Below, one piece after another: positions 916 to 63,875 of a stretch of 64,000 nt of DNA. A model generated the notes under the pieces. That model was not told the DNA's origin. It searched no databases and saw only the letters and a list, made by a program, of their open reading frames with translations. The first letter of the stretch is position 1, and the number at the start of each line of letters is the position of its first letter. Made by a program: the position numbers and the translations under genes. Where the stretch lies: IMG/VR virus record IMGVR_UViG_3300037313_001331; one strand, given 5' to 3'. This DNA comes from a virus (lineage: Duplodnaviria > Heunggongvirae > Uroviricota > Caudoviricetes).

Positions 916-1296
916 TCACTGAAGAGCCTCCTTCTTGACCCGACGCAGGGTCTTGTTGATCCAGTTCAGGACGCGGGGATTGCGCATCCACATCTCGACC
1001 TGGCCGTAGGTGTGCTGGGTGGTGAACGTCTCCTCGTCGGAGTCGTCCGTGACATCGCGCGCCCAGTTGATGCAGTGGGTCAGCTCGTGCACGGCGGTGT
1101 TCAGGGCGGTCTGCAGGTCGAGCCCGCTGGACAAGAACACCTTGTTCTCGCCCGTGTAGGTCATGCCGTCACAACCGCCCAGCTTCTCGTGGTCGGGTGC
1201 GACCACGAAGATGCGGAAGGTGTACTGGCCGATCTGCACGCGCCGCGGCAGGCCCTTGTAGAAGTCAGGCGCGTTCTGGATTTCGTTCGTCAGCAC
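916..1296 (-). CDS. HExxH zinc-metallopeptidase-like protein
   Basis: HELTHC motif; GTG start lies inside a class A box GTCAGCACTGAC with SD GGGAGTGGG just upstream. Confidence 0.55.
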   Translation of the reverse strand: MLTNEIQNAPDFYKGLPRRVQIGQYTFRIFVVAPDHEKLGGCDGMTYTGENKVFLSSGLDLQTALNTAVHELTHCINWARDVTDDSDEETFTTQHTYGQVEMWMRNPRVLNWINKTLRRVKKEALQ

Positions 1297-1297
1297 T
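1286..1297. promoter_or_regulatory. class A box GTCA-N4-TGAC
   Basis: GTCAGCACTGAC containing the GTG start of gene 916..1296; operon-internal. Confidence 0.5.
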
Positions 1298-1310
1298 GAC
1301 CCACTCCCGG

Positions 1311-1946
1311 CTACAACGTGGCGGCGAATGCGACCAGGGCCTCGTCGTTCTTCAGGCCGGTGGCAGCTTCGGCTTTCGCCATGAGGTTGGTGATTGCGAT
1401 CTGGCCGGCGGCCGAGATGTCCTTGAACCCGAAGGCCCGGGCCAGCGACACCTTCGACGCGGCGGCGGTCTCGATGCGGGTCTCGATGTCGGCCCGCTGC
1501 TCGGCGACCACCTTGTCCATGTCGTCGACGAATGCGCCCGGGTTGATGGCCCCCAGGTCGGCGTCGAGGAACTCCAGCTCCTTCGCGTCGAAGATGCCGG
1601 TGAGGTCCATGTCGATAGCCGCCAGCTCCGCCTTCAGCATCTCGGGGTCGATGTCGGAGATCGCCACGCGGTTGTCGGCGACCCGGGCGGCCTTGACCTG
1701 GTCGTCGCTCAGGTCGTCGCGCACCAGCACCGGCACCTTGTCCAGGCCCAGCTCGATGGCGGCCAGGCGCCGGCCGTGCCCCTTGATGATGATGCCGTGC
1801 TTGTCCACGACGATGGGCACGTCCCAGCCGAAGCGCTTGATCGACTCGACGATCTTCTTGACCTGGTCCTTCTCGTGCTTCTTGGAGTTCAGCTCGTATG
1901 GGATCAGGTCCTTGACCGGACGCATTTCCAGCTTCGGGGTCTTCAT
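1311..1946 (-). CDS. ParB-like nuclease domain protein
   Basis: ParB N-terminal-like block KDLIPYELNSKKH...GHGRRLAAIELG; start at MKTPK with RBS. Confidence 0.7.
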   Translation of the reverse strand: MKTPKLEMRPVKDLIPYELNSKKHEKDQVKKIVESIKRFGWDVPIVVDKHGIIIKGHGRRLAAIELGLDKVPVLVRDDLSDDQVKAARVADNRVAISDIDPEMLKAELAAIDMDLTGIFDAKELEFLDADLGAINPGAFVDDMDKVVAEQRADIETRIETAAASKVSLARAFGFKDISAAGQIAITNLMAKAEAATGLKNDEALVAFAATL

Positions 1947-2323
1947 GCGTCGGCCCTCCCGTTCAGCGTTGCGCAAGCGAAGCACTCGTAGCGGGCACGG
2001 CCGAGAAACACGCTGCCGCAGCGGTTGCAGTTGAGCGTGTCCTTGCGCCCTTCCTTCACGTCCGATGGCCAGTCGCGCGGTGTCAGCGTCGGTTCTGCCG
2101 GGGTCTTCTCGACCTCGAACAGCGCGACGCCCCCCGGGAAGTCGGGATCGGGTGCGATCACGAACTCGGCCGGCTTCCCGTCACGCGGGTTGAGCACGGA
2201 CAGGTAGATCTCGCCCTTGTCGTTGCCGCCGAACGCTGTGATCTTGGCGCCTACCAGGCGCCAGATGACGTGGTCACCGTAGTCGGCTTCTGCCTGCTCG
2301 GCCGGGTTCAGTGCGTCGCTCAT
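1943..2323 (-). CDS. hypothetical protein with C-terminal Cys zinc-ribbon-like motif
   Basis: ORF with CNRCG...CFAC; ATGA overlap with downstream gene. Confidence 0.5.
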   Translation of the reverse strand: MSDALNPAEQAEADYGDHVIWRLVGAKITAFGGNDKGEIYLSVLNPRDGKPAEFVIAPDPDFPGGVALFEVEKTPAEPTLTPRDWPSDVKEGRKDTLNCNRCGSVFLGRARYECFACATLNGRADA

Positions 2324-2326
2324 GAC

Positions 2327-2551
2327 TCAGAAGAAGGTGGGTTTGGCCACGGCGCGGGTCAGCGCCATCAGACCGGTCTGGAAGTCGGTGGCGCCGATGG
2401 ACACCCAGCGCTGATCGAGGTTCGGCGTGGCACGCAGCCGCTCGATGAGCGCGCCCAGCTCGGCTCCCTTGGCCTTGATCTCGTTCATCAGGTCGATCTC
2501 GACCTGGTCCAGCTCGCGGTAGCCCGCGATCTTTCGGTGTTGGTTGTCCAT
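2327..2551 (-). CDS. hypothetical protein (74 aa)
   Basis: start MDNQHRK overlaps stop of upstream gene (TGATG). Confidence 0.5.
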   Translation of the reverse strand: MDNQHRKIAGYRELDQVEIDLMNEIKAKGAELGALIERLRATPNLDQRWVSIGATDFQTGLMALTRAVAKPTFF

Positions 2552-2748: not shown

Positions 2749-2912
2749 TGGGGCACCTCGATCAATTCGTTGCGCACGCGCATGAACCCGTCTTCGCCGA
2801 TCTCGATGAGCGATTCGTCCAGCTCGTAGCCGTCGGCGTTGTCGCAGTCCCCGCACACCACCGGGTCCTCGCGGTGGAGGCAGCTGTTGCAGCTCGGGAA
2901 CTTGTCGCTCAC
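2745..2912 (-). CDS. small Cys-rich zinc-ribbon-like protein (55 aa)
   Basis: manually translated: GTG start after GAGG SD, CNSC...CGDC, ends in ATGA overlap; below ORF-track cutoff. Confidence 0.4.
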   Translation of the reverse strand: MSDKFPSCNSCLHREDPVVCGDCDNADGYELDESLIEIGEDGFMRVRNELIEVPQ

Positions 2913-3580
2913 ATCACCTCCCGGGCGGCGCTCACAATGGCCACCAGCGCCATGCCGGCTGCGACCATCGAGTCCTCTTCGGCCTTGAAGCCGTTGGTCT
3001 TCACCACGTGGGAGATGAAGGCCTCGACGCGCGCCTGGTCCTCGACGGGCACCTTGAAGCGCATCAGGGCGTGGGTGATGGTTGGGCGCTCGGGCTTTTC
3101 CAGCGTGGGGATGGTTTCCTCGCCCTTCTCTTCGTCATCGAGGCCCAGCATGTCGAGGTCGATGCTGTCGGCCGCGAAGATGCCGGCCAAGTCCTGCTCG
3201 GTGTAGGGCAGGAACTTGGTCACGTCCTCCCCACCCAGGTCCTTCAGGATCTCGCCCAGCTTCAGCGCGTCGTCCTCGCCATACCGGCCGTTGTCGGCCA
3301 GGCCGATGGCCTTGGCTTGGCTGTCAGGGATGTGGCCCAGGTTGACGTAGGGCACCTCAGCAATGCCCATGCGCTGGGCGGCCCGGGTGCGGTGCTCGCC
3401 GCCGAGGATCTGCAGCGACCCATCGGGCAGCTCGCGCACAACAATGGGCTTGTAGAAGCCCATGCGCCGAATGCTCTCTTCGAGTCGGGCCTCCATTTCA
3501 GGACCCACCACGTTGCTGTTCCAAGGGTTGGGAAGCAACGTCGCGGGCGCTGCGTATCGAATCTCGATGCGGCTTGTCAT
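2909..3580 (-). CDS. ParB/Srx-like nuclease domain protein (second copy)
   Basis: LLPNPWNSN...ILGGEHRTRAAQRMG ParB-like N-terminal motifs. Confidence 0.65.
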   Translation of the reverse strand: MTSRIEIRYAAPATLLPNPWNSNVVGPEMEARLEESIRRMGFYKPIVVRELPDGSLQILGGEHRTRAAQRMGIAEVPYVNLGHIPDSQAKAIGLADNGRYGEDDALKLGEILKDLGGEDVTKFLPYTEQDLAGIFAADSIDLDMLGLDDEEKGEETIPTLEKPERPTITHALMRFKVPVEDQARVEAFISHVVKTNGFKAEEDSMVAAGMALVAIVSAAREVM

Positions 3581-3604
3581 TGGTCTAGGTATAAGGGATA
3601 CTCA

Positions 3605-3616
3605 GTCAGTGCTGAC
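3605..3616. promoter_or_regulatory. class A box
   Basis: GTCAGTGCTGAC after GGTATAAGGG in the divergent promoter region for the helicase. Confidence 0.5.
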
Positions 3617-3658
3617 TGATTAAATGTATAAGCAAACTGCGCCGATTGGCAAGCCTCA

Positions 3659-5383
3659 ATGATTCGGATCGCTCACAACGCAACAACCGCCAAGCTCTTC
3701 GACGCTGATCGCGACGCGAAGCTCGAAGTCCACCGGCTGCTGAGCTACCGCGTTGAGGGCTCCGAACACATGGCCGCCTTCAAGAGCGGTGGATGGAACG
3801 GCCGCGCGTCGTTCTTCGACTTCGCCAAGGGCACCTTCCCCACCGGCTTCGTCCGCCTGGTCGCGCAAGGGCTGCGCAAGAAGGGCTACGACATCCAGAT
3901 CGTCGCCAAGCCGCGGCCGGAGCCCCTGGGCCCGGAGAGGCCCGTTGTGGATCCCTTCGGCTACACGGAGCGCTACGACTACCAGCCCGCTGCCGTGGAC
4001 CAACTGGTGCGGCACGGCAACATCACCGTTCAGGTGGCCACCGGCGGCGGCAAGTCGCGCATCGCGCGCATGGCCTACAAGCGGATCGACCGCCCCACCC
4101 TCTTCCTCACCACGCGCGGCGTGCTGCTCCACCAGATGAAGGAGGCGGTCGAGGGCATGGGCGAAGAGGTCGCCGTGCTCGGCGACGGTGATTGGGGCAT
4201 CCCGTACACCCGGCCCGACGGAAAACAGGGCCGCCGCATCACGAAATTCGTCGTTGGCATGGTCCAGACGCTGGCTCAGCGCTTGGAGATCATCTCCGTC
4301 GACGGCGAACTCGAAGCCTTGACCGCCAGGCGCGACGCCGCCGAGTCAAAAGCGGTCGCCAAGCTGAAGGAAGACCTGAAGCAGCAAGGAATCACCGATT
4401 CCGAGGTCGTGCGCACGCGCTGCATCGCCCTTCTCGAAGGAATCACCTCGAAGTACCCCTCCAAAGAGCAGGATCGAGCGGAAATCACCGCCAAGGTCGC
4501 TCGGCACGAGCGGCTGCGGCTGGCCACCATCGAAATCCTCGCCCGTTTCGAGCTGGTGATCGCGGAAGAAGCTCACGAGGTGTCTGGCAACTCGTTCTAC
4601 GCGGTGATGAGTGCTTGCCGCAACGCGCACTACCGCATGGCGCTCACCGCCACGCCCTTCATGAAGGACGATGAAGAGGCGAACATGAAGCTGCTCGCGT
4701 GCTGCGGGCCGGTGGCGATCCGGATCACCGAGAAGATGCTGATCGACCGCGGCATCCTGGCGCGGCCGTACTTCAAGTTCCTGAAGCTGGACCCGTCGAA
4801 GAAGCCCAAGGGCATCTTCCGCACAACGGGCTGGCCGCGTGCCTATGAGCTTGGCATCGTGAAGAACGAATACCGCAACAAGCTCTTCTGCGTGGAGATG
4901 CTGCGTGGCATCAAGTACGGGCTGAACGGAATGATCCTGGTGACGCACAAGGCGCACGGGAAGATCTTCCTCGACATGCTGCGCAAGGCGGGCGCCCGGG
5001 CCGAGTTCATCTGGGGCGAGGACGACCAGGCCGGCCGGAAGGCGGCACTGCGCCGGCTCGGCAACGGCGAGATCGACGTGCTCATTGGGACCTCGATCAT
5101 GGACGTGGGCGTGGACGTGCCCAGTCTGGGCATCGTCGCGCTCGCCGGCGGCGGCAAGGCTGAGGTGGCAACGCGGCAGCGCATCGGCCGCGGGCTGCGC
5201 GAGAAGAAGGGCAAGCTGCCGAACGTCGCCTTCATCGTCGACGCGGCCGACAGCGACAACACGCACCTGGCGCGGCACGCGCGTGAGCGCCGGGCGATCA
5301 TCGAGGGAACGCCGGGCTTCGCCGAGGGCATCGTCGACGACTTCGACTACGTCGGCCTCGGGCTGGAGCGTCTGGCAGCGTGA
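3659..5383 (+). CDS. SF2 DEAD/DEAH-box helicase
   Basis: Walker A VATGGGKS, DEAH-like AEEAHE, TATP motif III, helicase-C motifs GTSIMDVGVDV and RQRIGRGLR. Confidence 0.85.
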   Translation: MIRIAHNATTAKLFDADRDAKLEVHRLLSYRVEGSEHMAAFKSGGWNGRASFFDFAKGTFPTGFVRLVAQGLRKKGYDIQIVAKPRPEPLGPERPVVDPFGYTERYDYQPAAVDQLVRHGNITVQVATGGGKSRIARMAYKRIDRPTLFLTTRGVLLHQMKEAVEGMGEEVAVLGDGDWGIPYTRPDGKQGRRITKFVVGMVQTLAQRLEIISVDGELEALTARRDAAESKAVAKLKEDLKQQGITDSEVVRTRCIALLEGITSKYPSKEQDRAEITAKVARHERLRLATIEILARFELVIAEEAHEVSGNSFYAVMSACRNAHYRMALTATPFMKDDEEANMKLLACCGPVAIRITEKMLIDRGILARPYFKFLKLDPSKKPKGIFRTTGWPRAYELGIVKNEYRNKLFCVEMLRGIKYGLNGMILVTHKAHGKIFLDMLRKAGARAEFIWGEDDQAGRKAALRRLGNGEIDVLIGTSIMDVGVDVPSLGIVALAGGGKAEVATRQRIGRGLREKKGKLPNVAFIVDAADSDNTHLARHARERRAIIEGTPGFAEGIVDDFDYVGLGLERLAA

Positions 5384-5414: not shown

Positions 5415-5426
5415 GTCAGTAGTGAC
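5415..5426. promoter_or_regulatory. class A box
   Basis: GTCAGTAGTGAC 19 nt before ATG 5445. Confidence 0.5.
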
Positions 5427-5657: not shown

Positions 5658-5738
5658 CTCAGCAGTCGCTTATTGCTAACTCAGCGGGTGCTGACTACCT
5701 ATAATGGGAGTCTCACCCGCTTAGTATTTGGAGACTGG

Positions 5739-7485: not shown

Positions 7486-8123
7486 GCGGTGGCTGGCACG
7501 AGGGCGGCATCGTGTCGGATGACGTGGCCGACGGAATGGCCTATGCCTGGGGCGTCGGGAAAGACCCCTGGAGGCTCAAAGTCGCTGAGGGCGCGGGAGA
7601 GCCTTTCGTTCGCAGTCTTGGCGACAAGGTGGGTTCGGGAGAAGCGGTCGTTGACACCGAATACCGGGTGTTCACTTCGGGGCGACGCGCCGGCAAGACA
7701 GTGCGATGGTCGGCTGGTGCTCCAATTCACGTCACCGTGAAGGTCGATGAAGCCATCGCGGAAATGGATGCGGCGAAGAAGTCGCTGAAGGCTTTTGTCG
7801 ACGCAGAGCTGCGCAGACGAATGCTCGATGCTGTGAGAGAAACGGTCGGGGTCTTCGATGAATTGCCCTGGCCTGCGCGACGGGGCTATGGTGCCGGCGC
7901 GAAGCCGATGCTGGCGCGGGACTTGGCCACCACCGAGGTCGACATGCGCGGCATGATGGTGGTGAACTCAGACCGCAGGGAGTGGGCGGAGAGAAGCGCC
8001 ACAGACGATCTGAGCAGACGAGCATCACATCGGGCTGCGGCACGCGTGAAGCCCAGCCCGATGCTCGCGAAGTTACTCGACCGACACGAACTGATCAACG
8101 ACGACAAGCGGGGTACGTGGTGA
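7482..8123 (+). CDS. hypothetical protein
   Basis: GTG start overlapping upstream TGA; same frame as ORF-track 7167..8123. Confidence 0.5.
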   Translation: MSGGWHEGGIVSDDVADGMAYAWGVGKDPWRLKVAEGAGEPFVRSLGDKVGSGEAVVDTEYRVFTSGRRAGKTVRWSAGAPIHVTVKVDEAIAEMDAAKKSLKAFVDAELRRRMLDAVRETVGVFDELPWPARRGYGAGAKPMLARDLATTEVDMRGMMVVNSDRREWAERSATDDLSRRASHRAAARVKPSPMLAKLLDRHELINDDKRGTW

Positions 8124-8491
8124 GCGACCCCGCTCTTTTTTGGCACAACAACAGGGACACACGAACGATGAAGCTCACGGACATTCAGGAGGGCAAGAAC
8201 TATGGCAACGACAAAGACCCGCAATGGGCGGGGTACTACCGCACGGTCTGGATGATCGTCGACACGCCCAACAAGCCCGGCGGGAAGACCGTCCTGTGGA
8301 AGGTGGGCGGCGAAGGGGCGGGGCAGCCGCCGACACCAGGCCGGTTGAAGTCGACCCACCACGCGGGGCAGACCTCGCTGAAGAACTTCGCGGTCTGGGC
8401 GACGCATGAGGTGGTGGTGAAACAGCGGGCACCGGCCAAGAAGGTGGCGGCGAAGAAAGCCCCTGCGAAGAAGGCGGTGGCCAAGAAGTGA
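8120..8491 (+). CDS. protein with Lys/Ala-rich histone H1-like C-terminal tail
   Basis: C-terminus KKVAAKKAPAKKAVAKK; GTG start overlapping upstream stop (ATG at 8168 is an alternative). Confidence 0.5.
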   Translation: MSDPALFWHNNRDTRTMKLTDIQEGKNYGNDKDPQWAGYYRTVWMIVDTPNKPGGKTVLWKVGGEGAGQPPTPGRLKSTHHAGQTSLKNFAVWATHEVVVKQRAPAKKVAAKKAPAKKAVAKK

Positions 8492-9334: not shown

Positions 9335-9346
9335 GTCAGTGCTGAC
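9335..9346. promoter_or_regulatory. class A box
   Basis: GTCAGTGCTGAC next to palindrome GGGCACACGTGTGCCC (9357-9372). Confidence 0.5.
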
Positions 9347-9385
9347 TGATCGAACAGGGCACACGTGTGCCCTGCCCTGGGTGGG

Positions 9386-10051: not shown

Positions 10052-10084
10052 GGTGTGTACCTTTCAAAGTGTGTGTCAGTAGTG

Positions 10085-10096
10085 ACTGAGTGTCCC
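10085..10096. promoter_or_regulatory. class A box
   Basis: GTCAGTAGTGAC with a TGTGTG flank; 24 nt before ATG 10051. Confidence 0.5.
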
Positions 10097-15540: not shown

Positions 15541-15552
15541 GTCAGTGGTGAC
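15541..15552. promoter_or_regulatory. class A box
   Basis: GTCAGTGGTGAC; 20 nt before ATG 15521. Confidence 0.5.
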
Positions 15553-19023: not shown

Positions 19024-19045
19024 GGTCAGTGACTCAGCACTGACC
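19024..19045. promoter_or_regulatory. double class A box
   Basis: GGTCAGTGACTCAGCACTGACC; 11 nt before ATG 19013. Confidence 0.5.
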
Positions 19046-22435: not shown

Positions 22436-22447
22436 GTCAGTGCTGAC
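22436..22447. promoter_or_regulatory. class A box
   Basis: GTCAGTGCTGAC; 17 nt before ATG 22419. Confidence 0.5.
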
Positions 22448-22900
22448 TTACCACGATCCGCGAGAAGCGACCCTGTGCCCGTCTTCGTAGACGGTGCGCC
22501 CCTCGGGTGGGTGTGAAACCAAATGATCGCCCTGTGAGTCAGGACTGAGTGATTCCATTGTAGAGACCGCCGAAGGCGTTGCCCGGTCGGCGTACAGGCT
22601 GGGCGTGCGCGAATTGGCGATCTCCACCAGCTGGCGCCAGTACCGCTTCATCTTGTTCCGGGTGATCGCCAGCTGCTTCGGGGTCAGCGACTCGTACCGG
22701 AGGTAGCCGCGCACCATGTCCGTGAGGAACGGGGCATCGAACCGGGAGAAGCCGACGCCATTCACCTCCCGGGTGTGGTGGCCGGCCTGTTCGGCGGCCG
22801 TCTGGCGGTTGTAGATGGCGAGCAGGGCCTTGTACACGGCCTGGTCGCTTCGCTCCAGGAGTGCCTGGATGCTCTCCTTCGTGTGAGTGGCAGCGGTCAC
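22448..22900 (-). CDS. hypothetical protein
   Basis: GTG after GAAGGG, 15 nt after a class B box; the ORF-track TTG start lies inside the box. Confidence 0.45.
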   Translation of the reverse strand: MTAATHTKESIQALLERSDQAVYKALLAIYNRQTAAEQAGHHTREVNGVGFSRFDAPFLTDMVRGYLRYESLTPKQLAITRNKMKRYWRQLVEIANSRTPSLYADRATPSAVSTMESLSPDSQGDHLVSHPPEGRTVYEDGHRVASRGSW

Positions 22901-22915
22901 TTGTTGCCCTTCGGT

Positions 22916-23391: not shown

Positions 23392-24204
23392 TCACGCGCC
23401 CGCGAAGAGCATCGAGTTCGCCTTCGCCAGCAGGGTGCTCTCGGGGTTGCCGACGTAGCGGCCCTTGCCGTCGGCGACGATGACCTTCAAGTCGGCGAAC
23501 ATGCTGATGGTGTTGCCCGACATCGCCCGGGCCGACGGCACGCTGTAGGGCTTGGCCAGCAGGTTCTTCATCACGTTGCCTTCCTTGCCCGTGGTGATGT
23601 GGCCCTCGTCCTTGAGCACCTTCAGCGTGCGGTGCAGGACTTCGTTGAGCGAGGACTTCTTGCCGCTGATGAACTCGATGAACAGCGAGGCGCGGTTCTG
23701 CTCCTTCTTGTTCATCTTCTTGATGATGGCCAGCGTCTCTTCCATGCGGGCCTTGACCGCCTCGGGGTCGTCGGTGGCATCCGAGACGGTCAGCACCGTG
23801 TAGTCGGACAGCACCCCGCCCACGCGGTCCTTCAGGCGCTCGGTCTTGTCGGTGTAGTGCTTGCGCGGCACCTTGGCCTTCACCGGTGCCGCGGGCGTGG
23901 TCCCGGCGGCGGGGATGACACCATCCGGGGTCGCAGCGGCGATGCTCAGCTCGACCGCTTCGGCACCGGCCACCGCCGCATGCAGCTCGGCTTCGGTGTG
24001 CGCGGGCTTCACCGCGGTCTCGACCGGCGTCGGTGCGACCAGGGGTGCGGCGCCTTCGAGATCGGCGATGAGCGCGCTCAGTGCGGCGTCGCCCGCGTCT
24101 TCGACGGCGGAACCAGCTGCGACAACGCCGCCGGCGTCGGCGGCTGCCGCTTCGACCTTCGGTGCGGCGGTCGACTTCTTGCTGGAACGAGTGGTTTTTG
24201 CCAT
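23392..24204 (-). CDS. hypothetical Ala-rich protein
   Basis: 270-aa ORF; GGAGG SD. Confidence 0.55.
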   Translation of the reverse strand: MAKTTRSSKKSTAAPKVEAAAADAGGVVAAGSAVEDAGDAALSALIADLEGAAPLVAPTPVETAVKPAHTEAELHAAVAGAEAVELSIAAATPDGVIPAAGTTPAAPVKAKVPRKHYTDKTERLKDRVGGVLSDYTVLTVSDATDDPEAVKARMEETLAIIKKMNKKEQNRASLFIEFISGKKSSLNEVLHRTLKVLKDEGHITTGKEGNVMKNLLAKPYSVPSARAMSGNTISMFADLKVIVADGKGRYVGNPESTLLAKANSMLFAGA

Positions 24205-26134: not shown

Positions 26135-26160
26135 GTCAGTACTGAGTCATTATAGGGAGC
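26135..26160 (-). promoter_or_regulatory. class A box plus conserved -10-like box
   Basis: minus strand GGCTCCCTATAATGACTCAGTACTGACTGAG upstream of alpA. Confidence 0.5.
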
Positions 26161-28598: not shown

Positions 28599-28937
28599 TC
28601 AGTGCAGCTCCGATTCGAGCAACCAGCCGATCTGCTGGCGCTCCGTGACCGGCAGCAGGTACAGGCGCCCTTGCCCGGTCGGACCCGGTTGGGTCATGAG
28701 TGAGTTGAGGACGGGGATGTAGGTCGCGACGTTGCGCAAGACCTTCTCGCCTTCCGGTGCGGGCGCCACGAACTCGTAGGCGAACACCTCGCAGTGCGCG
28801 TAGCCGCCGGACCGGCCGAAGCGCTCGACGATCACGAAGTCGGCGAGAGGGATGCCGTGGTGCTTAAGCCAGCTGACCGCCTCCTGCAGCCCGCCGGCGA
28901 TGTGCGTTTGAACGGAATTGAGTCGTGTGTCAGTCAT
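28599..28937 (-). CDS. hypothetical protein
   Basis: 112-aa ORF. Confidence 0.5.
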   Translation of the reverse strand: MTDTRLNSVQTHIAGGLQEAVSWLKHHGIPLADFVIVERFGRSGGYAHCEVFAYEFVAPAPEGEKVLRNVATYIPVLNSLMTQPGPTGQGRLYLLPVTERQQIGWLLESELH

Positions 28938-29010
28938 GACAAACCTCGTGGGGTGCGATGCTGAATGATCGAGGGGGCCCCTTGGACATGGGGGGTTGCT
29001 GCTTGGCTGG

Positions 29011-34776: not shown

Positions 34777-34788
34777 GTCACTACTGAC
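34777..34788. promoter_or_regulatory. class A box
   Basis: minus strand GTCAGTAGTGACACACAA directly followed by ATG 34770. Confidence 0.5.
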
Positions 34789-34846: not shown

Positions 34847-34880
34847 GTCATCACTGACTGTCGAACTCATTATAGGGAGC
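34847..34880 (-). promoter_or_regulatory. conserved -10-like box plus class A box
   Basis: minus strand GCTCCCTATAATGAGTTCGACAGTCAGTGATGAC. Confidence 0.5.
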
Positions 34881-36486: not shown

Positions 36487-36498
36487 GTCAGTACTGAG
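36487..36498. promoter_or_regulatory. class A box (variant)
   Basis: GTCAGTACTGAG; 19 nt before ATG 36468. Confidence 0.45.
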
Positions 36499-40085: not shown

Positions 40086-40238
40086 TTGTTCTCCTCTGAA
40101 AATGTCCCTGAACCTGAATCGTCGGGGCTCCCCGTTGGCAACGGTGAGTCACCACTGAGTGCACCGCTGGTGCGCCTTGGGACGCTCCAGAGATTGATGG
40201 GCGGGAGCGTGAACCCCTCCCATTCAATCGCACAGTTA

Positions 40239-40274
40239 CTCAGCACTGACTTAGTCGTTTGCATTATAGGGAGC
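40239..40274 (-). promoter_or_regulatory. conserved -10-like box plus class A box variant
   Basis: minus strand GGGGCTCCCTATAATGC-N10-GTCAGTGCTGAG. Confidence 0.45.
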
Positions 40275-42602: not shown

Positions 42603-42614
42603 CTCAGTGCTGAC
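42603..42614. promoter_or_regulatory. class A box (variant) upstream of the RNR gene
   Basis: CTCAGTGCTGAC about 50 nt before the RNR ATG. Confidence 0.45.
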
Positions 42615-50859: not shown

Positions 50860-50885
50860 ATTATAGAGAGTTAGTCAGTGATGAC
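50860..50885 (-). promoter_or_regulatory. class A box plus TATAAT
   Basis: minus strand GTCATCACTGACTAACTCTCTATAAT; the box spans the SleB-like stop codon. Confidence 0.45.
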
Positions 50886-56117: not shown

Positions 56118-57062
56118 TCAGCCGAGTTGGCTCAGCAGTTCGTCCAGGTCCGGGTCACCGGTGGGCTCGCCCGCCGTCGTCGCGGCTGCGGGAGCCGCCG
56201 CGGGCTTGGCCGCTGCCTTCGCGGGCAGATCCGGCACGTCGGTGATCTCCTCGTCCAGCTTCTTGGCAGCTGCAGCGGGCTTCGCGGCCGGCTTGCGCGG
56301 TGCAGCGACGGCGTAGTCGTCGTCGACCAGCTCGGCGGCACCAGCTGCGGCCTCGGGCAGGCCCGAGGGGCGAGCACCGGCTGCGGCCGGAGCTGCCAGC
56401 AGACCGGCAACGGAACGCACCGAGTTCAGGGCGCGCTGTTGTTGCTCGACCGACTCCTGCTGCACGTAGGCGTCCAGGTCGTGGAGCTTGGTGAGCACGT
56501 CCGGCGACACGGCGCTCGCCTTCGCGGCCAGCATGGTCTGGTACTTGGTGTTCTTGCCCGTGCCTTCGCGGGTGATGATGATGTCCGAACCCGGATTGCC
56601 GTCGCCCATGATGATGGACTCGCCGGCTTCTTCGTACTCGGTGGCGATGCCCAGCACCTGCTCGAACACCGTGGGCGCCAGCTCCAGGATCTGGACCTCG
56701 CCGGGGGTCGGGCCATCCAGCTGCACCGCGTTCAACAGCACGCGGCCGGCGGACTTGGCTTCCTTCAGCAGCTCCATCGTGGCGTCGTCGGTCGCGCCCT
56801 TGATGGCGCTCTGCACCGCGTCGCACACGGGGCAGGGACGACCGAAGGTCTTGTCCGTGCAGACGTAGATCGCGGCGATGGTGTTGTCGGCGTTCTTGAC
56901 GAAGTGCTGACCGAAGTCGTGCCAGAACTGCTGGCCGGCGCCACGCCAGGACTGGAGGATGCGCCAGCGACTGCGACCTGCGGCCGGCTTGACGGTCTTG
57001 CGACGCTTGCCGGAGGCCAGGTCTTGCTTCTTGTTCTTCAGGAGTTCGAGCAATGCGGACAT
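56118..57062 (-). CDS. putative ssDNA-binding protein
   Basis: position in the replication block, Cys cluster CTDKTFGRPCPVCD, Ala/Pro-rich linker and acidic tail DPDLDELLSQLG; inference only. Confidence 0.4.
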   Translation of the reverse strand: MSALLELLKNKKQDLASGKRRKTVKPAAGRSRWRILQSWRGAGQQFWHDFGQHFVKNADNTIAAIYVCTDKTFGRPCPVCDAVQSAIKGATDDATMELLKEAKSAGRVLLNAVQLDGPTPGEVQILELAPTVFEQVLGIATEYEEAGESIIMGDGNPGSDIIITREGTGKNTKYQTMLAAKASAVSPDVLTKLHDLDAYVQQESVEQQQRALNSVRSVAGLLAAPAAAGARPSGLPEAAAGAAELVDDDYAVAAPRKPAAKPAAAAKKLDEEITDVPDLPAKAAAKPAAAPAAATTAGEPTGDPDLDELLSQLG

Positions 57063-57112: not shown

Positions 57113-57139
57113 CACATTATAGTGTGTGTCAGTGGTGAC
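57113..57139 (-). promoter_or_regulatory. class A box plus TATAAT
   Basis: minus strand GTCACCACTGACACACACTATAATGTGAGG upstream of the SSB-like gene. Confidence 0.5.
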
Positions 57140-57142
57140 TGA

Positions 57143-60600: not shown

Positions 60601-61074
60601 CCGGGCGGACAGCTGCGCGCTGATCGAGGTGGCGTCCTCGCGGTGCCACAGGTTGTAGATGTCGCCGGTCGTGACGATCACGTCCTCCAGCGCCAGCACG
60701 TCGGCCAGACCCAGGCGGGCGTGGTAGTAGTAGTGCTCGGGCGTGAGCGACTTCGTGAGGGCCGCGAACAGACTCTGCATGCCCTTGTCGGACTTCACGT
60801 AGACCTTCAGGCGGTAGCCGCCGTTCTCGCGGTCCTTGAGCTTCGCCGTCGGATCGTCCACCACCTGGATGGTGCACCCGACAATGGGCGTGATGCCGGC
60901 CTTCTTGCATTTCTCGGCGAAGAACGGCATCGACGCGACGCTCATGTAGTCCGCGAGCGCGATGTGCGTGTAGCCCAGCTCCTTCGCGCGGTCGACGATC
61001 TTGCCGACCTGGAAGCTGGACTCGCCCAGCGAGAAGTCGGAGCGAACCGACAGTGCGATCTGCAGCGGATTCAA
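57649..61074 (-). CDS. dnaE: DNA polymerase III alpha (DnaE) fused to a C-terminal family-4 UDG-like domain
   Basis: PHP domain and palm GPGRGSVGGSLVAYLMGITDIDP; C-terminal ~190 aa with GIHPGSV (HPS-like) motif; TTG start after GGAGAAG, overlapping upstream TGA (TTGA). Confidence 0.85.
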   Translation of the reverse strand: MNPLQIALSVRSDFSLGESSFQVGKIVDRAKELGYTHIALADYMSVASMPFFAEKCKKAGITPIVGCTIQVVDDPTAKLKDRENGGYRLKVYVKSDKGMQSLFAALTKSLTPEHYYYHARLGLADVLALEDVIVTTGDIYNLWHREDATSISAQLSARFGRDYIIELVALDTPLFNRLNRKAFEVGDAYLQTMIVTRPAFYATPEDANATDVLRAISSNTSAHSIFLPRPYVRNMCLLSAKDMVEECKKLRDQVGSGRVLSLVENAKLIPAGCSFVFKKLQPTMPKMADDEFTALLAAVKAGWGKRFGREVWGHAPSREDLDGPYRERLAFELGVLKKMGFSGYFLLVQDIVNWSKENGVRVGPGRGSVGGSLVAYLMGITDIDPIRFGLLFERFINPDRVDLPDADLDFMSGKRHMVIDYIRNKWGHDRVAGIVNFSTLGPASALRDTARLHDLDPWEYACSKQMEKEHGVSLSLTESAERVPDIEKFKNERPILWDYALRLEGANRSLSQHAAGVVVAGEPVVNRAVVSTRGDKDGSTLPIVQWDKTKVEDFGLIKIDILGLSTLDMVETALEYIRERHHKTIDMLSLPLDDKRVLEAFAKGDTTGVFQFEGGGMKNLLKQLALGGPLTFDDICAATALFRPGPLDAGLCDRYVQVKQGATRPYYDHPKLEPVLSETYGVMAYQEQVMQVCRVLAGFTPGEADGVRKAIGKKDAEKMAEFKDKFIKGCVDHSEWEEHKAESLWTSIEGYAAYSFNKSHSYEYSLISWVTMWLKVYYPAEFFAAAMTVVDKDEKLAGLVLDAQGKKLQVLPPDLNRSSARVEIEGEDKLYAPLQAIKGISSGVAAAIEKLRAHVGGRFTWVPVSTKEVPLKTKVKIVEVPAHIRGLDQETQKEVLGRTAVNSKHLENLEKVGALHSITGEGKPATHPDRLKDRIALVPGFTVEMVRPDRELNAEHLAKIKITRLVEEARACEGCSLKGKPHPLPRMGDKPRFMMVFDTPSWEEERAGKMLEGKASEAVKAALKDVGLRASDGYYTSLVKVSKPKEQKALTNEQIIGCSKYLEQEIEILKPPIIIAMGSNAVRWFAPGIKGTPADLAGKVIYRADLDATVIFGIHPGSVFHDPSKVRLIENTFEKLGELLT

Positions 61075-61280
61075 GGCGTCTTCTCCAGCGGCACGACGAC
61101 ACCCTTGAAGATGTCCGCGTACTTCACCGCGCTGCCGATTGACATCGGCACACTGAACCGAGGTGGAATGCAGTCGTCGTAGCGAACGCGTGCTTTTGGC
61201 CACCAGTGAGGCTCGTGCCCGCGGAGACCGTTGTGACAAAAGAAACCCATTCGCCCGAGAAGAAGCCAGATCTTGAACAT
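61071..61280 (-). CDS. small ORF translationally coupled to dnaE
   Basis: ATG 5 nt after class A box plus ACACA; no SD. Confidence 0.35.
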   Translation of the reverse strand: MFKIWLLLGRMGFFCHNGLRGHEPHWWPKARVRYDDCIPPRFSVPMSIGSAVKYADIFKGVVVPLEKTP

Positions 61281-61285: not shown

Positions 61286-61297
61286 GTCAGTGGTGAC
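61286..61297. promoter_or_regulatory. class A box
   Basis: minus strand GTCACCACTGACACACA directly followed by ATG 61280. Confidence 0.5.
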
Positions 61298-61306: not shown

Positions 61307-61912
61307 TCATGATAGTGCCCGCGTGGGGTTGGATGTGAAATGCAACGCCCCATTCAGCTCACAAACCAGTTGCCCGGCGAGGAAGATCGCCACCGCATCG
61401 GAGACCTTCACCTTGGCGCTACTGGGCGCCATGCCCAGCTCTGCCTGGAAGGCGAATGCCAAGCGCGCTCGGGACCATCCGCCCTCCAGCAGGGCCCGCA
61501 CCATGATGTGTCGCCAGCCCTTCGCCGCGGGGTTTCGGCCCGCCTGCATTTCCGCACGCACGTGGTCGAACCAGCCACACTCGAAGCCCCGACGGATCTG
61601 ACTCTGCACGCGCTTGGGCGCGGCGTCGATCACCTGCTGTTCGCCCGCGGTGATGCTGACGCGCGTGACGCCCCGGGTGCTCGCCGTGATCGTTCTGTCG
61701 GGGACCTCCCCACCCTGCTTCGCTGGCGAACCCTGCAGCAGCTTCGCTGCGAGCACAAGGTCCTGGCGTGCACGACGCACGCCAGCTTCATCGGGAAGCT
61801 TCGCCAGCACCCGACGTGCAACCGACACGCACGCCGCCGAGTGCGAACAGGCGCCACACGTTGTCGATGTGGCGCTGACGTAGACCGGAGAACCGTAGCA
61901 GGTGGGCGTCAA
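61307..61912 (-). CDS. Cys-rich protein coupled to the sigma factor (candidate anti-sigma)
   Basis: TTG start overlapping the sigma stop (TTGA); CYG...TTCGACSHSAAC cluster; function inferred from context only. Confidence 0.4.
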   Translation of the reverse strand: MTPTCYGSPVYVSATSTTCGACSHSAACVSVARRVLAKLPDEAGVRRARQDLVLAAKLLQGSPAKQGGEVPDRTITASTRGVTRVSITAGEQQVIDAAPKRVQSQIRRGFECGWFDHVRAEMQAGRNPAAKGWRHIMVRALLEGGWSRARLAFAFQAELGMAPSSAKVKVSDAVAIFLAGQLVCELNGALHFTSNPTRALS

Positions 61913-62592
61913 GCGGCTTTGTCCGAGAGCGTCTTGCGCAGGCCTCCGATGGGTGCCCACTGCACGTCGAACTTGGCGAGGATCTCGCGCTTGACCTGGC
62001 GCAGCTCTTCGCCAGCCAGACCGATCTCGGTACACAGCTCGCGAAGCTTGCGGCCACCGGTGCCGCGCTCCTTCTCGTCGAGCATCAGTGCCGTCACCAG
62101 GCGGCGAGCGCCCGGGGACAAGGATGCCAGGCGCTCACGCACGGCATCGCGGTGGTCGAGGCGGTCCTCTTCGGAATCATCCATCTGGTCGCCGGCCAGC
62201 AGCTCCAACGGGTCGCCCTCCGCCTCTGCGCCCACGACTTCCTCGTAGCTGACCAGGCCCAGCTCGGCACGCTCCTTCTCGGGCTTCTCGATGTAGGCGT
62301 TGAAGAAGCGCCACGCGACGGTCTGACAGTAGCTGGAGAAGTAGGTGCCGCGGTCGGCGGACCAGCTGCGAGCCGCCTGGACGTAGCCCAGGTTCAGCAC
62401 GCTCATGCAGTCGTCCAGCTCCATGCCCAGCCCCATGGCCTCCACCCGCCGGAATGCCTTGATGGCCATGCCCTTCAACATGCCCTGGACGGACTCGTAG
62501 GAGCCATCGTTCGCGTAGCGCTTGTTCTTCTCCTCCCGAACGCGAGTGGTGCGCGGCTTCAGGACAACGACGGTGGGGGAAACTGCTTGCAT
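61909..62592 (-). CDS. sigma-70-family RNA polymerase sigma factor
   Basis: region-2-like RGTYFSSYCQTVAWRFFNAYI and region-4 HTH LRELCTEIGLAGEELRQVKREILAKF; AAGGA SD. Confidence 0.7.
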   Translation of the reverse strand: MQAVSPTVVVLKPRTTRVREEKNKRYANDGSYESVQGMLKGMAIKAFRRVEAMGLGMELDDCMSVLNLGYVQAARSWSADRGTYFSSYCQTVAWRFFNAYIEKPEKERAELGLVSYEEVVGAEAEGDPLELLAGDQMDDSEEDRLDHRDAVRERLASLSPGARRLVTALMLDEKERGTGGRKLRELCTEIGLAGEELRQVKREILAKFDVQWAPIGGLRKTLSDKAA

Positions 62593-62616
62593 GGGACTGA
62601 TCCTTGAGTCGAAAAA

Positions 62617-63786
62617 TTACTTGCCGAAAACGCGCTTGGCGACCTGGTCCGCGACTTCGCGGTCCACCGTCGACAGACGGTTGATGAAGGCCTTCTGCAG
62701 GCCCAGGTGGTAGTTGTTGTGGGCGTACCCGTACATGCCAGCGTTGATCAGCGAACGCGGCGAGATCGGGTTGGACAGCTTGGACGAGTCGAACTCCTGG
62801 CGCACTCGGGTGGCAAAGTCGACGAGCAGCTTCGCGTCCTCGGGCGGGATGTCCGACTGCAGGGCGACCAGTCGCTCCTCCAGCGCCTTCTCCATGTAGG
62901 GCATCTTCTCGACGATGCCGAAGCGCTCGAAGTTGGCGGCGTTCTGGATCGTGGTGCCCTGGTACAGGCCGGTCTCATCGCCCTGCCCGTTCGTGTTGCC
63001 CGTTGCGACGATGCGGAAGTCCGGATGCGGCTTCACGACCCGCATCGAGGTGTCAGCTTCCTTGATGAACAGCGGCTTGCCTTCCAGCACCGCCTGGTAC
63101 ACGGCGAGCACCTCCGGGCGCCCGAAGTCGTACTCGTCGGCGATGTACAGCCACCCGTACTTCATCGCCATGGGCAACGGCCCGTACTCGAAGAACGTGT
63201 GACCATCGCGCAGACGCCACCCGCCGACGATGTGCTCCTCTTCCATGTTGGCGGTGTGCTGCACACGCACGGTGGGGCGTCGCGTGCGTGCCGCGACCTG
63301 CTCGAAGATGGTGGTCTTGCCGGTACCCGAGTGACCCCAGAGGAACGTCGGGATGTTCATCTCCAGCCCGAACATCAGCGACTTGAGCACGTCCAGGTTG
63401 AAGACGTAGTTGGGGTCGACTGCCGGCACCATGTCGGAGAACTCGGGCGTGTCCGGCATGACGGAGATTTTGATCGGCTCGCCCTTGCTGCTGAGCGCCG
63501 CCTTGACCTTGCCCAGGCCGAAGACTTCGTGGAAGTTTTTCTTCATGGACGTGGCCACCGGGGTGGAAGATGTGTCAGTACTGACTGAGCTTGCAAGCGC
63601 TCGCTTTTCCAGCTCTGCCTTTGCGATGTCGCTCAGCAGCGGCGCACCGGGAAACTCCTTCTCGTAGTCCTTGAGGGTGTACCCCTCGGCGGCGTGGTCC
63701 TTCGCGATGTGCAGCTGAATCGAGTGGACCTTTGCGCCACACTTCATGCACTTGATCTTGGTGTCTTCCGTGGTGCCCTTGCTCAT
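62617..63786 (-). CDS. AAA+ ATPase (MoxR/CobS-like) with N-terminal zinc ribbon
   Basis: Walker A LWGHSGTGKTT, Walker B LYIADEYD, N-terminal CMKCGAKVH; ATG after GGAGGA. Confidence 0.8.
   Translation of the reverse strand: MSKGTTEDTKIKCMKCGAKVHSIQLHIAKDHAAEGYTLKDYEKEFPGAPLLSDIAKAELEKRALASSVSTDTSSTPVATSMKKNFHEVFGLGKVKAALSSKGEPIKISVMPDTPEFSDMVPAVDPNYVFNLDVLKSLMFGLEMNIPTFLWGHSGTGKTTIFEQVAARTRRPTVRVQHTANMEEEHIVGGWRLRDGHTFFEYGPLPMAMKYGWLYIADEYDFGRPEVLAVYQAVLEGKPLFIKEADTSMRVVKPHPDFRIVATGNTNGQGDETGLYQGTTIQNAANFERFGIVEKMPYMEKALEERLVALQSDIPPEDAKLLVDFATRVRQEFDSSKLSNPISPRSLINAGMYGYAHNNYHLGLQKAFINRLSTVDREVADQVAKRVFGK
63574..63585. promoter_or_regulatory. class A box inside the AAA+ ATPase CDS
   Basis: GTCAGTACTGAC within codons for SSVSTDTS, about 30 nt before an in-frame Met. 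Confidence 0.4.
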
Positions 63787-63817
63787 CAAATCCTCCGGTT
63801 CACAATGTTTGTCGCGG

Positions 63818-63850
63818 GGTTGCGATGGTTGAATCTTCGCCCCTACATCT
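63818..63850 (-). promoter_or_regulatory. class B box copy 8
   Basis: GTTGCGATGGTTGAATCTTCGCCCC; about 30 nt before the AAA+ ATPase ATG. Confidence 0.5.
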
Positions 63851-63863
63851 TGGACATCATACA

Positions 63864-63875
63864 GTCAGCGCTGAC
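63864..63875. promoter_or_regulatory. class A box
   Basis: GTCAGCGCTGAC upstream of class B copy 8. Confidence 0.45.

Follow-up and report, generated by a model that had tools for sequence, protein, structure and literature searches.

A dispersed 18-bp palindrome at the -10-only promoters of a Caudoviricetes phage as a putative repressor operator

The recurrent box and its surroundings

The DNA analysed, a 64-kb stretch of phage sequence (the window), contains about 22 copies of the palindromic box GTCA-N4-TGAC, which are found beside genes for a helicase, a ParB-like protein, an AlpA/excisionase, thyX, ribonucleotide reductase, an SSB-like protein, sbcD and cobS, among others (Table 1). It is the top-enriched 4+4 palindrome of the window (Poisson p ~2.5e-18). 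Seventeen exact copies are present, compared with 1.34 +/- 0.99 in 100 dinucleotide shuffles (maximum 4), and 58 sites are found at the one-mismatch level where 30 are expected. The recurrent box described in the first-pass annotation is thereby confirmed, at a frequency far above expectation in an enrichment and position analysis covering the window and relatives. Besides the exact copies, about seven boxes carry one mismatch and are mostly intergenic; the mismatch affects the outermost base at 19033, 26135, 36487, 40148, 40239 and 42603. Non-coding DNA makes up 14.5% of the window and holds 11 of the 17 exact boxes (binomial p = 3e-6). Paired boxes are spaced 69-104 bp apart, and also ~290-340 bp.

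All copies listed earlier are present, with two positions corrected (1286 to 1289-1300 and 10085 to 10075-10086). Absent from that list were a one-mismatch box at 22538 and a box at 28929, which appears genuine in view of its ACACG flank and internal ATG. Exact matches at 13729 and 16868 are without flanks and probably arose by chance. The original description of a 12-bp box usually followed by ACACA holds only in part: the motif extends to an 18-bp palindrome, TNA-GTCA-N4-TGAC-TNA, with conserved T-N-A on the left and A at +9 on the right, and an ACACA-type right flank accompanies only about half of the copies. At 5415 this flank is on the opposite side with respect to the gene. The ACACA flank lies outside the operator and is a leader feature specific to the phage's lineage, seen at those boxes that are located in A/C-rich untranslated leaders.

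Several boxes touch coding sequence. As first described, the ATG codons at 34770 and 61280 directly follow ACACA(A), with no Shine-Dalgarno sequence. The GTG start proposed at 1296, within a box, is plausible, as ORF 916-1296 has a GC3 of 0.92 and GGGAG 7 nt upstream. The box at 50874 does not span a stop codon, as had been proposed; it overlies the final four sense codons and is adjoined by TAA. The box at 63574 does lie within a coding region, that of cobS.

Table 1. Boxes along the window and the gene of the candidate regulator (d, start of the box relative to the -10 hexamer)
Feature	Position	Strand	Context
Box	1289..1300	-	Holds GTG start (1296) of ORF 916-1296
Perfect 18-bp palindrome TCAGTCAGTGCTGACTGA	3602..3619	.	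TATAAG hexamers on each side (3590 and 3627); between divergent ParB-like gene (2909-3580, minus) and helicase gene (3659-5383, plus)
Box	5415..5426	+	18 nt ahead of ATG 5445 of plus-strand gene; flank orientation reversed
Degenerate box, 6-bp spacer (CTCAG-N6-CTGAC)	5677..5705	+	4 nt upstream of plus-strand TATAAT 5700-5705
Box	9335..9346	-	8 nt past 20-bp palindrome/hairpin 9355-9374
Box	10075..10086	-	ACACA flank; 23 nt ahead of ATG 10051
Box	15541..15552	-	ACACA flank; 19 nt ahead of ATG 15521
Double overlapping box	19024..19044	-	Upstream of likely true start (~19011) of gene 18304-19011
Partner box	22436..22447	-	102 bp downstream of 22538 box; ATG 22419 16 nt on
One-mismatch box	22538..22549	-	7 nt downstream of TACAAT (22562-22557); within 3' end of ORF 22448-22930
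Candidate box-binding regulator	23392..24204	-	270 aa; monocistronic; own terminator 23363-23342
Near-perfect 18-bp palindrome	26135..26146	-	2 nt downstream of GCTCCCTATAAT (TATAAT 26154-26149); promoter of AlpA/excisionase gene 25918-26121
Box	28929..28940	-	ACACG flank; spacer holds ATG of ORF 28599-28937
Partner box	34777..34788	-	70 bp past 34847 box; then ACACAA, ATG at 34770
Box	34847..34858	-	10 nt downstream of GCTCCCTATAAT (TATAAT 34874-34869); then terminator hairpin 34830-34809
One-mismatch box	36487..36498	-	Between thyX (36499-37422) and gene 36208-36468
Degenerate partner box	40148..40159	-	91 bp downstream of 40239 box
One-mismatch box	40239..40250	-	12 nt downstream of GCTCCCTATAAT (TATAAT 40268-40263)
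One-mismatch box	42603..42614	-	Upstream of ribonucleotide reductase gene 40287-42554
Box	50874..50885	-	Overlies final 4 codons of gene 50871-51296; TATAAT (50865-50860) 8 nt downstream; sbcD promoter
Box	57128..57139	-	6 nt upstream of TATAAT (57121-57116); promoter of SSB-like gene 56118-57062
Box	61286..61297	-	11 nt downstream of TATCAT (61314-61309); then ACACA, ATG at 61280
Intragenic box	63574..63585	-	cobS linker; 290 bp from 63864 box
Box	63864..63875	-	cobT/cobS junction; TATGAT (63861-63856) begins 2 nt past box, d = -14

Placement at -10-only promoters

The promoters associated with the box have the consensus C-C-C-TATAAT-G, with no -35 element and no TG-extended -10, and are referred to here as -10-only. 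Each of the six perfect TATAAT hexamers in the window lies within 24 bp of a box, which is degenerate in one case, and a TATAAT-type -10 is likewise touched by the box in uncultured relatives of the phage (GC 40-66%). The box adjoins the hexamer, sits up to 12 bp upstream, or begins 1-13 bp downstream. In a first set, a -10 with no more than one mismatch was present at such operator-type offsets for 42 of 94 boxes (45%), compared with 1.7% of random positions; for 262 distinct boxes from the phage and its relatives, the share is ~42%. The earlier statement that the box is not simply a promoter is therefore half right, and about half of the boxes are without a recognisable -10 hexamer. In the window, no -10 neighbours the box at 63574, likely an auxiliary operator, and none was recognised at 36487.

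Among the 262 boxes, d clusters at -12, from -13 to -24 and from +7 to +23, and no box starts between -11 and +3. The commonest single value is -12, with the box adjoining TATAAT (29 of ~110 promoter-linked boxes), while downstream values peak at +12/+13, with 18 cases, and at +8, with 6. Of the promoter-linked boxes, about half are situated downstream of the -10 and ahead of the start codon, where they cover ~-4 to +20. The arrangement of the box at 63864 is matched at position 7220 of relative L010. Orthologous promoters keep the box yet shift its place, which suggests that both positions have one function. Nine relatives retain the box at the SSB promoter with d from -12 to -24 (-12, -17, -18, -23, -24), and at the promoter after dnaE d is +12 or +13 in L002, L012 and L006 but -12 in L010. 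Steric occlusion is compatible with both positions.

We consider the best explanation, with a probability of about 0.55, to be an 18-bp DNA operator bound by a phage-protein dimer in a promoter-blocking network, with the product of 23392-24204 as the likely binder. A dimer of this sequence-specific protein would bind the extended palindrome on the core of -10-only promoters, filling -24 to -13 (or a site at most 12 bp upstream of this) or covering the start site (~-4 to +20). At either placement, the bound protein would exclude RNA polymerase or prevent DNA opening. Such a network would be global, spanning replication, recombination, nucleotide-metabolism, excision, lysis and tail operons. Boxes without a -10, whether 70-105 or ~300 bp from a promoter box, before start codons or within cobS, might be auxiliary operators that work via looping or cooperativity, or might be roadblocks. 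The proposal of a genome-wide operator for a dimeric regulator, already made from the sequence alone, is supported by the palindrome, its apparently uncontacted spacer, the link to -10 hexamers, conservation and DNA-level selection on an intragenic copy. Counting against a repressor, immunity repressors usually diversify fast, whereas very divergent phages share this operator.

It is possible, though unlikely, that the box protein is instead a positive or dual factor. As the promoters lack both a -35 and a TG extension, a positive factor may be needed, a role that the box protein could fill by enabling RNA polymerase to use them with host sigma-70 or with the phage's own sigma factor (61909-62592), in the manner of a MotA-box-like -35 replacement. 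A dual version might activate from an upstream box and repress from a downstream one. The fixed arrangement in which the box adjoins TATAAT fits this proposal, as do the early-gene-like character of the box-free candidate gene behind its long conserved leader and the presence of boxes at every gene class in a large clade, which is expected of an essential lytic-cycle factor. However, a protein bound at the downstream boxes should block the open complex, spacing varies from -12 to -24 at a single orthologous promoter, and orthologous promoters swap upstream and downstream placement without a split of the two classes by gene function. Intragenic and promoter-less copies also misfit an activator. 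T4 MotA provides a partial parallel, as a phage factor whose site lies beside the -10 at middle promoters without a -35, but its box is asymmetric, with a fixed location at -30, whereas the present site is a dyad found from -24 to +20.

The candidate binder and comparable systems

For the operator network, the leading candidate binder is the winged-helix product of 23392-24204 on the minus strand. Its N-terminus is basic, its linker acidic and disordered, and its C-terminal domain, which is conserved, has a predicted winged helix; the AlphaFold2 model of the protein has pLDDT >90 for residues 110-270. The family is unannotated, with no Pfam or NCBIfam match. Forty-one loci with a homologue (763 kb) contain 170 boxes where 10.1 are expected, with at least one box in 40 of them, and box numbers in control loci are at expectation (12 vs 12.7, 5 vs 4.2, 1 vs 2.9). 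Homologues occur in the contigs of box-positive L003, L007, L010, L032, L033 and L034, and tblastn against 50,697 cultured phages found none, including in box-free RHEph10, nickie and SSU5. The candidate gene itself is without a box. This co-occurrence may reflect mere shared ancestry within one phage clade. One phage (L186/L026) encodes a homologue at 36% identity and has no box in 37 kb, box counts in L144 and L153 equal or approach the chance level, and the predicted recognition helix varies by subfamily (ARAMGGN, AQAGQ, ARSQANQ) while the box core is unchanged. Neither binder suggested originally is retained: the 21195-21608 protein is not conserved in box-carrying relatives and has its sole IMG/VR relative on a box-free contig, and AlpA is a 67-aa excisionase-type protein of the phage's integration module. 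The winged-helix repressors MecI/BlaI, MarR, PadR and ArsR show no sequence similarity to the candidate, which differs from them in its extra N-terminal basic and acidic regions.

The set of boxes is best read as resembling the distributed operators of P1 C1, the L5 stoperators and the phiC31 inverted repeats, and would represent a control system of known kind in a previously undescribed phage group. The P1 C1 repressor reportedly has about 17 or more dispersed operators. P1 shares with the present system a large (~100 kb) temperate phage, a group that also includes phage-plasmids, and many operons with a promoter-overlapping operator each, all silenced by one regulator. Its operators are asymmetric 17-mers rather than palindromes, no similarity to C1 was detected in the candidate (no Pfam or NCBIfam match), and the promoters of the present phage differ in being without a -35. 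The stoperators of mycobacteriophage L5 and cluster A are said to be asymmetric and orientation-dependent, with gp71 acting as a monomer. They are similar in number and size (~20-30+ copies of a 12-13-bp site across the genome) and in that many copies occupy short intergenic gaps before genes, away from promoters; the boxes also show a flank orientation bias relative to transcription. In contrast to L5, the present core is a dyad and ~40% of sites are on a -10 hexamer. Streptomyces phage phiC31 has conserved inverted repeats bound by repressor c, which are ~17-bp palindromic sites at many loci, in early promoters and elsewhere. Sequence, host phylum and repressor family differ, and the phiC31 early promoters are not TATAAT-type.

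Two other binders are each very improbable. A host transcription factor, coupling phage promoters to host physiology, would account for an operator conservation unusual for a phage repressor site, and no classical Cro/CI-type regulator was detected in the window. Yet enrichment of the same core extends to phages with GC contents from 40% to 66%, implying very different hosts, and this constancy points to a phage-encoded binder. Moreover, 1.2 Mb of bacterial loci show no enrichment (12 vs 12.7 expected), and the sequence strings searched matched no published motif. Equally doubtful is a role of the boxes as parS/OB-like sites of a ParB-like protein (1311-1985 or 2909-3580) acting as a KorB-like clamp and silencer. 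The window does encode two ParB_N paralogues and an ATPase, with the perfect palindrome immediately upstream of one ParB-like gene. KorB of IncP plasmids, a member of the ParB family, has 12 dispersed palindromic operators, some distant from promoters, and KorB-OB resembles the present system in its at least 12 palindromic operators, promoter-proximal and distal, and in global repression. However, the window's proteins have the ParB N-terminal domain only, with no helix-turn-helix domain detected. PHROG families 930 and 723 occur widely among phages, whereas the box was absent from the RHEph10 and nickie loci and at chance in other phage loci examined. The box spacer also varies among relatives, unlike contiguous parS/OB sites.

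DNA-level action of the box

The box acts at the DNA level and not as RNA. A 4-bp stem with a tetraloop, marking translation initiation or cleavage in 5' leaders, had been offered as an alternative; it would suit the many window copies 6-30 nt ahead of start codons, their single flank orientation and the two sites without a Shine-Dalgarno sequence, but is rejected as extremely improbable. Many boxes are upstream of the -10 hexamer, the commonest position in relatives, and so outside the transcript. The stem sequence itself is conserved beyond mere pairing, with no covariation (each of the seven one-mismatch copies disrupts a pair, and compensating changes are absent), and the hairpins fold weakly, mostly at -3 to -4 kcal/mol (-0.6 to -8.5 overall), with no match to an Rfam family. 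The reversed flank at 5415 and the intragenic copies in two frames also oppose an RNA signal. The copy within cobS is under DNA-level selection despite its coding location: it is kept in at least six phages and two reading frames, including L002, L003, L007, L010 and L013, the last in the other frame, while the surrounding linker is otherwise variable.

A dispersed palindrome and its contact with promoters

The palindromic box GTCA-N4-TGAC occurs in 17 exact copies in the window, where 1.34 are expected (100 shuffles, maximum 4), and it is the most enriched palindrome of the 4+4 type there. This bears out the recurrent element described by the first-pass annotation, whose coordinates were essentially right and needed only small corrections. 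Seven additional copies carry one mismatch and share flanks and context with the exact ones; the exact copies at 13729 and 16868 are probable chance matches. Over 90.5 kb of this phage's genome, with the tail and lysis region included, the count is about 32. The non-coding 14.5% of the window holds 11 of the 17 exact copies (p = 3e-6), and boxes accompany replication, recombination, nucleotide-metabolism, excisionase, lysis, and tail operons. A restriction or methylation site was ruled out, as the site is both enriched and localised to promoters.

Alignment of the copies extends the box to a longer dyad, T-N-A-GTCA-N4-TGAC-(T/A)-N-A. The spacer itself reads GYRC in this phage, and the central 4 bp vary among relatives. 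While the core is a perfect dyad, asymmetry is confined to the outer flank in this lineage and is reversed at 5415. An ACACA flank, earlier taken as the usual companion of the box, is indeed present, but in only about half of the copies. The right flank in relatives is T-N-A/T. Outside this phage and one other IMG/VR locus (L006), where they are common, ACA-type flanks are sporadic (e.g. L034, L149, L153), and they mostly occur where an A/C-rich leader and then a start codon come after the box. No equivalent palindrome was found in the known box-free relatives RHEph10 and nickie. Two box matches in the dnaE N-terminus of other loci (L007 at 6007, L011 at 10028) encode a conserved peptide, S-V-R-S/T-D, and are probably coding coincidences rather than operators.

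All six perfect TATAAT hexamers in the window (five on the minus strand, one on the plus strand) have a box within 24 bp, and three of them share the identical context GCTCCCTATAATG. The association is plainer in lower-GC relatives, in which sequences of the type taaGTCAGCCCTGACTATAAT and cacTATAATgcccaaGTCACTAATGAC recur. In this phage and 54 related loci, 262 distinct boxes were placed relative to the -10 by a distance d, counted from the first base of the hexamer to the first base of the box. In 29 cases the box abuts the hexamer (d = -12) and in about 30 it lies further upstream (d = -13 to -24); none overlaps the hexamer or starts just upstream of it (d = -11 to +3), and about 50 lie downstream at d = +7 to +23, with peaks at +12/+13 (18 boxes) and +8 (6 boxes). 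In the first set of boxes, a -10 with at most one mismatch stood at such offsets in 42 of 94, as against 1.7% of random positions. Placement also shifts between phages at the same promoter. For instance, the promoter of the SSB-like gene has an upstream box in ten phages, at d = -12, -17, -18, -23, or -24, and the promoter after dnaE carries a downstream box in three phages (+12 or +13) and an upstream one in another (-12).

These promoters appear to consist of a -10 element only. Where the upstream side is free, the best match to a -35 element is at background (2.6 of 6 positions vs 2.4) and there is no TG extension, and a generic sigma-70 scan returned promoters no more numerous than in shuffled sequence. 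Read in reverse complement, the promoter motif gives CATTATAGGGAGC, which is similar to the T7 promoter core. The likeness was judged coincidental, since it runs opposite to the genes and a single-subunit RNA polymerase was not found. Plus-strand copies of CCCTAYAAK lie antisense to minus-strand genes and could be antisense promoters or belong to small plus-strand genes. At two sites a strong intrinsic terminator follows a promoter almost directly, which would either yield a short RNA of about 60 nt or leave the terminator serving the upstream operon alone.

Coordinates of boxes, promoters, genes, and neighbouring features in the window
Feature	Position	Strand	Remarks
ABC-like ATPase and two paralogous ParB_N proteins	34-783, 1311-1985, 2909-3580	-	PHROG 930, 723; the second ParB_N gene (2909-3580) is directly preceded by a perfect 18-bp box
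Protein with repeat tail	7982-8491	+	C-terminal AKKA/PAKK repeats, like histone H1 or AlgP-type nucleoid proteins
CCCTAYAAK copies	8898, 11978, 19427, 29017	+	
Perfect 20-bp palindrome	9355-9374		CAGGGCACACGTGTGCCCTG; 8 nt upstream (coding orientation) of the box at 9335
-10-only promoters, identical	40263-40275, 34869-34881, 26149-26161	-	GCTCCCTATAATG
-10-only promoters, further members	36161, 42568, 15976, 22562		CCCTAYAAKG
18-bp dyads	3602-3619, 26132-26149, 57125-57142		box downstream of the promoter at 26154 and upstream of that at 57121
Box pairs	34847 and 34777; 40239 and 40148; 22538 and 22436		
wHTH protein of the first-pass annotation	21195-21608		
Candidate winged-helix protein	23392-24204	-	
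Perfect 22-bp palindrome	24400-24421		TTCGTGATTCGCGAATCACGAA, with GCGCACACGCACACGCGCAC ahead of it
Direct repeats	24469-24530 and 24700-24730		four copies of GGTGGGAAC and three of GTGGGAA
Integrase gene	24738-25964	+	
Promoter followed by terminator	34874-34805 and 50865-50830	-	hairpins 34830-34809 and 50851-50836
tRNA-Val	38430-38506	-	anticodon AAC; sole RNA gene found in the window
Doubtful ORF	61071-61280		69 codons
dnaE start	about 61083	-	TTG
Neighbour of the sigma-like protein	61307-62035		
Sigma-70/ECF-like factor	61909-62592	-	regions 2 and 4 (TIGR02937, E = 6e-7, below cut-off); between cobS and dnaE

A probable protein site in DNA and its possible action

The alternative raised by the first-pass annotation, an RNA stem-loop marking translation initiation or cleavage, fits poorly with these placements. 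The most frequent position of the box is upstream of the -10, outside the transcript. The sequence of the arms is itself kept: in each of the seven one-mismatch copies a pair is broken, with no compensating change. As RNAs of 20 nt the boxes mostly fold at -3 to -4 kcal/mol (range -0.6 to -8.5), the strongest folds belonging to copies that are extended palindromes, and Rfam matched no family apart from a tRNA. The box is instead read as a DNA-level, promoter-linked protein site, with a probability of roughly 0.85.

The window and five IMG/VR loci (L002, L003, L007, L010, L013) have in common a conserved box within the variable cobS linker; box-free relatives lack this box. One of these loci (L013) reads it in another frame, as K-S-E-L-T-E vs S-V-S-T-D. 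The promoter at the cobT/cobS junction has a box too, 290-340 bp away. Other boxes are paired 69-104 bp apart, the downstream member usually just before a start codon, and a triplet is found upstream of cobT. Such pairing follows the pattern of lac O2 and gal OI, which are auxiliary operators, and by analogy many of the boxes that lack a promoter may serve as auxiliary operators.

A dimer would collide with RNA polymerase or block DNA opening whether it sat at -24 to -13 or spanned -4 to +20. Orthologous promoters use the two placements interchangeably, which suggests a single function for both, and repression by occlusion fits. Judged by position, the balance tips modestly towards the box being repressive. 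Without a -35 element, these promoters probably need a separate positive input, for which the phage sigma factor or host-specific tolerance are candidates.

The gap left by the absent -35 element also keeps alive the idea that the box protein is itself a positive factor. The winged-helix protein would then not be a repressor but a new kind of promoter-specificity factor that, by docking on a dyad at either side of the -10, lets RNA polymerase carrying host sigma-70 or the phage ECF-like sigma use -10-only promoters. Both the role and this arrangement appear improbable; to our knowledge, recognition of a dyad on either side of the -10 has not been described for MotA/AsiA, gp55/gp33, or class I/II activators.

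Candidate binding proteins

Because the core of the box is kept across phages of 40-66% GC, the protein that binds it is likely encoded by the phages. The candidate is the protein encoded at 23392-24204. It emerged from a locus fetched via an unrelated gene (L122), which is box-positive and shares few proteins with the window, this one among them. In the candidate, 270 aa long, a basic N-terminus leads through a disordered, acidic linker into a conserved domain of about 165 aa; residues 110-270 are modeled by AlphaFold2 at pLDDT above 90. Its gene is monocistronic, has its own terminator, and adjoins the integrase gene. All 46 homologues are unannotated ('hypothetical'), and one of them resides in the Variovorax paradoxus chromosome CP045644, whose prophage lies around 3.96-3.98 Mb. 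No match was found in Pfam or NCBIfam and no significant one in BFVD, and the sole PHROG match is PHROG 3932, of unknown function. A tblastn search of 50,697 cultured phages, the box-free RHEph10, nickie, and SSU5 included, returned no homologue.

Loci that encode a homologue are rich in boxes. In 41 of them (763 kb), 170 boxes were observed vs 10.1 expected, with at least one box in 40 of the 41. Bacterial dnaE loci (n=78, 1.23 Mb) hold 12 vs 12.7 expected, and two sets of other phage loci hold 5 vs 4.2 and 1 vs 2.9. Homologues are also found on the contigs of box-positive L003, L007, L010, L032, L033, and L034. This co-occurrence is a correlation inside one clade. One phage, covered by L186 and L026 (IMGVR_UViG_3300025735_000007), encodes a homologue at 36% identity, yet has no GTCA-N4-TGAC in 37 kb; TATAAT hexamers are nearly absent from the same 37 kb, and a search there for a replacement palindrome found none. 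Between subfamilies the predicted recognition helix varies, and a comparison of helix and box for covariation gave no clean signal. In 34 loci, no box lies within 1.5 kb upstream of the candidate's own gene. Taken together, the odds that the 23392-24204 protein binds the box are about even.

The non-coding DNA near the candidate gene has elements of its own. The window has the 22-bp palindrome TTCGTGATTCGCGAATCACGAA, and in relatives (L143, L144, L146, L148, upstream of position 10001) the gene's long non-coding leader contains GC-rich GCGCGC...GCGCGC elements similar to it, followed by a recurring TCATCGGGAAAGCA-like motif. The palindrome region and the leader elements may constitute the regulator's own control region.

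Other proteins in the window were considered as binders as well. Near dnaE, box-positive L009 and L013 lack both the sigma-like protein and its neighbour; L014 lacks the neighbour and gives only a weak match (26% identity) to the sigma-like protein. Nor is this pair specific to boxes, as the box-free RHEph10 has a sigma factor annotated at the same position. The two ParB_N proteins have no detected helix-turn-helix domain. The first-pass annotation had put forward two further proteins as candidates. The sole IMG/VR relative of its wHTH protein (21195-21608) sits on a box-free contig. That protein has no sequence match in Pfam, NCBIfam, or the PDB and one weak match among cultured phages, and the accessory region around its gene is not conserved in box-positive relatives; it was rejected as the conserved binder. 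AlpA was set aside as a small excisionase-type protein; the AlpA antiterminator of P. aeruginosa is a different, Q-like protein that uses an asymmetric GGGACG site (PMC9371919). Roughly two-thirds of the called window proteins, the accessory gene block among them, and selected gap ORFs were swept with Pfam and PHROG, some as concatenated pseudo-proteins; no Cro/CI-type regulator was revealed.

The phage, its relatives, and known regulatory networks

The window (64 kb, 64% GC) carries nearly all of its genes on the minus strand. They encode a DnaE-type polymerase, CobS, SSB-like and sigma-like proteins, a UvsW-like helicase, a 5'-3' exonuclease, RecA/UvsX, SbcCD, a DnaQ-like exonuclease, class II ribonucleotide reductase, ThyX, dUTPase, a prohibitin, an integrase plus AlpA, and two ParB_N proteins. 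Gene content and order are those of the replication arm of siphophages of about 110 kb such as Rhizobium phage RHEph10, Pseudomonas phage nickie, and the Salmonella phage-plasmid SSU5, with a DnaE identity of only about 40% to this group. Among cultured phages and plasmids, no close nucleotide relative of the window was found. IMG/VR contains the same phage (L005, L025, and L036, 100% identical) and many relatives, and joining the window with the same-phage loci gives 90.5 kb of one genome. A window protein has an identical copy on a 110,897-bp JGI contig, which puts the genome at about 111 kb. A DnaE search of genome contigs returned only two short MAG contigs (Burkholderiaceae, Hyphomicrobiaceae), the remaining matches being cellular dnaE. 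The clade has temperate members, as the integrase and AlpA of the window and the Variovorax prophage indicate. The network may serve either to maintain lysogeny, which is the role of P1 C1, or to time the lytic programme.

In function, the boxes resemble the operators of P1 C1, the stoperators of L5, the conserved inverted repeats of phiC31, and the OB sites of KorB, and by sequence they belong to none of these. With the P1 C1, L5 gp71, and phiC31 c networks they share many dispersed short sites, far above chance, that overlap core promoters (here at d = -24 to -12 or +7 to +23). L5-type stoperators are asymmetric and act in one orientation, whereas the box is a dyad, and the candidate showed no match in Pfam or NCBIfam to P1 C1 or any other described repressor family. 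The sites of ParB and KorB (parS, OB) are contiguous palindromes of 13-16 bp, with a ParB_N plus HTH protein encoded nearby. Here the comparison is mixed: the window does encode ParB_N proteins, no HTH domain was detected in them, and the central 4 bp of the box vary among relatives. The T4 MotA box is found at promoters that likewise lack a -35, but at a fixed position near -30, while the box described here varies in position and is often downstream of the -10. Literature searches with motif strings and for SSU5/RHEph10 promoter motifs returned nothing relevant, and neither the motif nor the promoter class nor the candidate family turned up in the literature or in the protein-family and fold libraries consulted.

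If correct, this reading offers a regulatory map that can be put to the test. It would apply to a large and entirely uncultured clade of siphophages of about 105-116 kb, related to the RHEph10, nickie, and SSU5 group and including the Variovorax paradoxus prophage. The map would consist of one 18-bp operator, one unannotated winged-helix family, and one -10-only promoter class. It would assign a function to that family, make promoters and operons in these phages predictable from sequence, and provide a compact operator-regulator pair working across backgrounds of 40-66% GC. Conceptually, it would be another case of distributed silencing in the style of P1 or L5 rather than a new principle.

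Two observations concern individual genes. The GGTGGGAAC and GTGGGAA repeats that closely precede the integrase gene resemble arm-type integrase sites or attP. The most likely start of dnaE is a TTG codon (M-N-P-L-Q-I-A...) with GGAG 9 nt upstream, rather than the ATG at 61353, and the doubtful ORF falls within the 200 nt that separate this start from the box.
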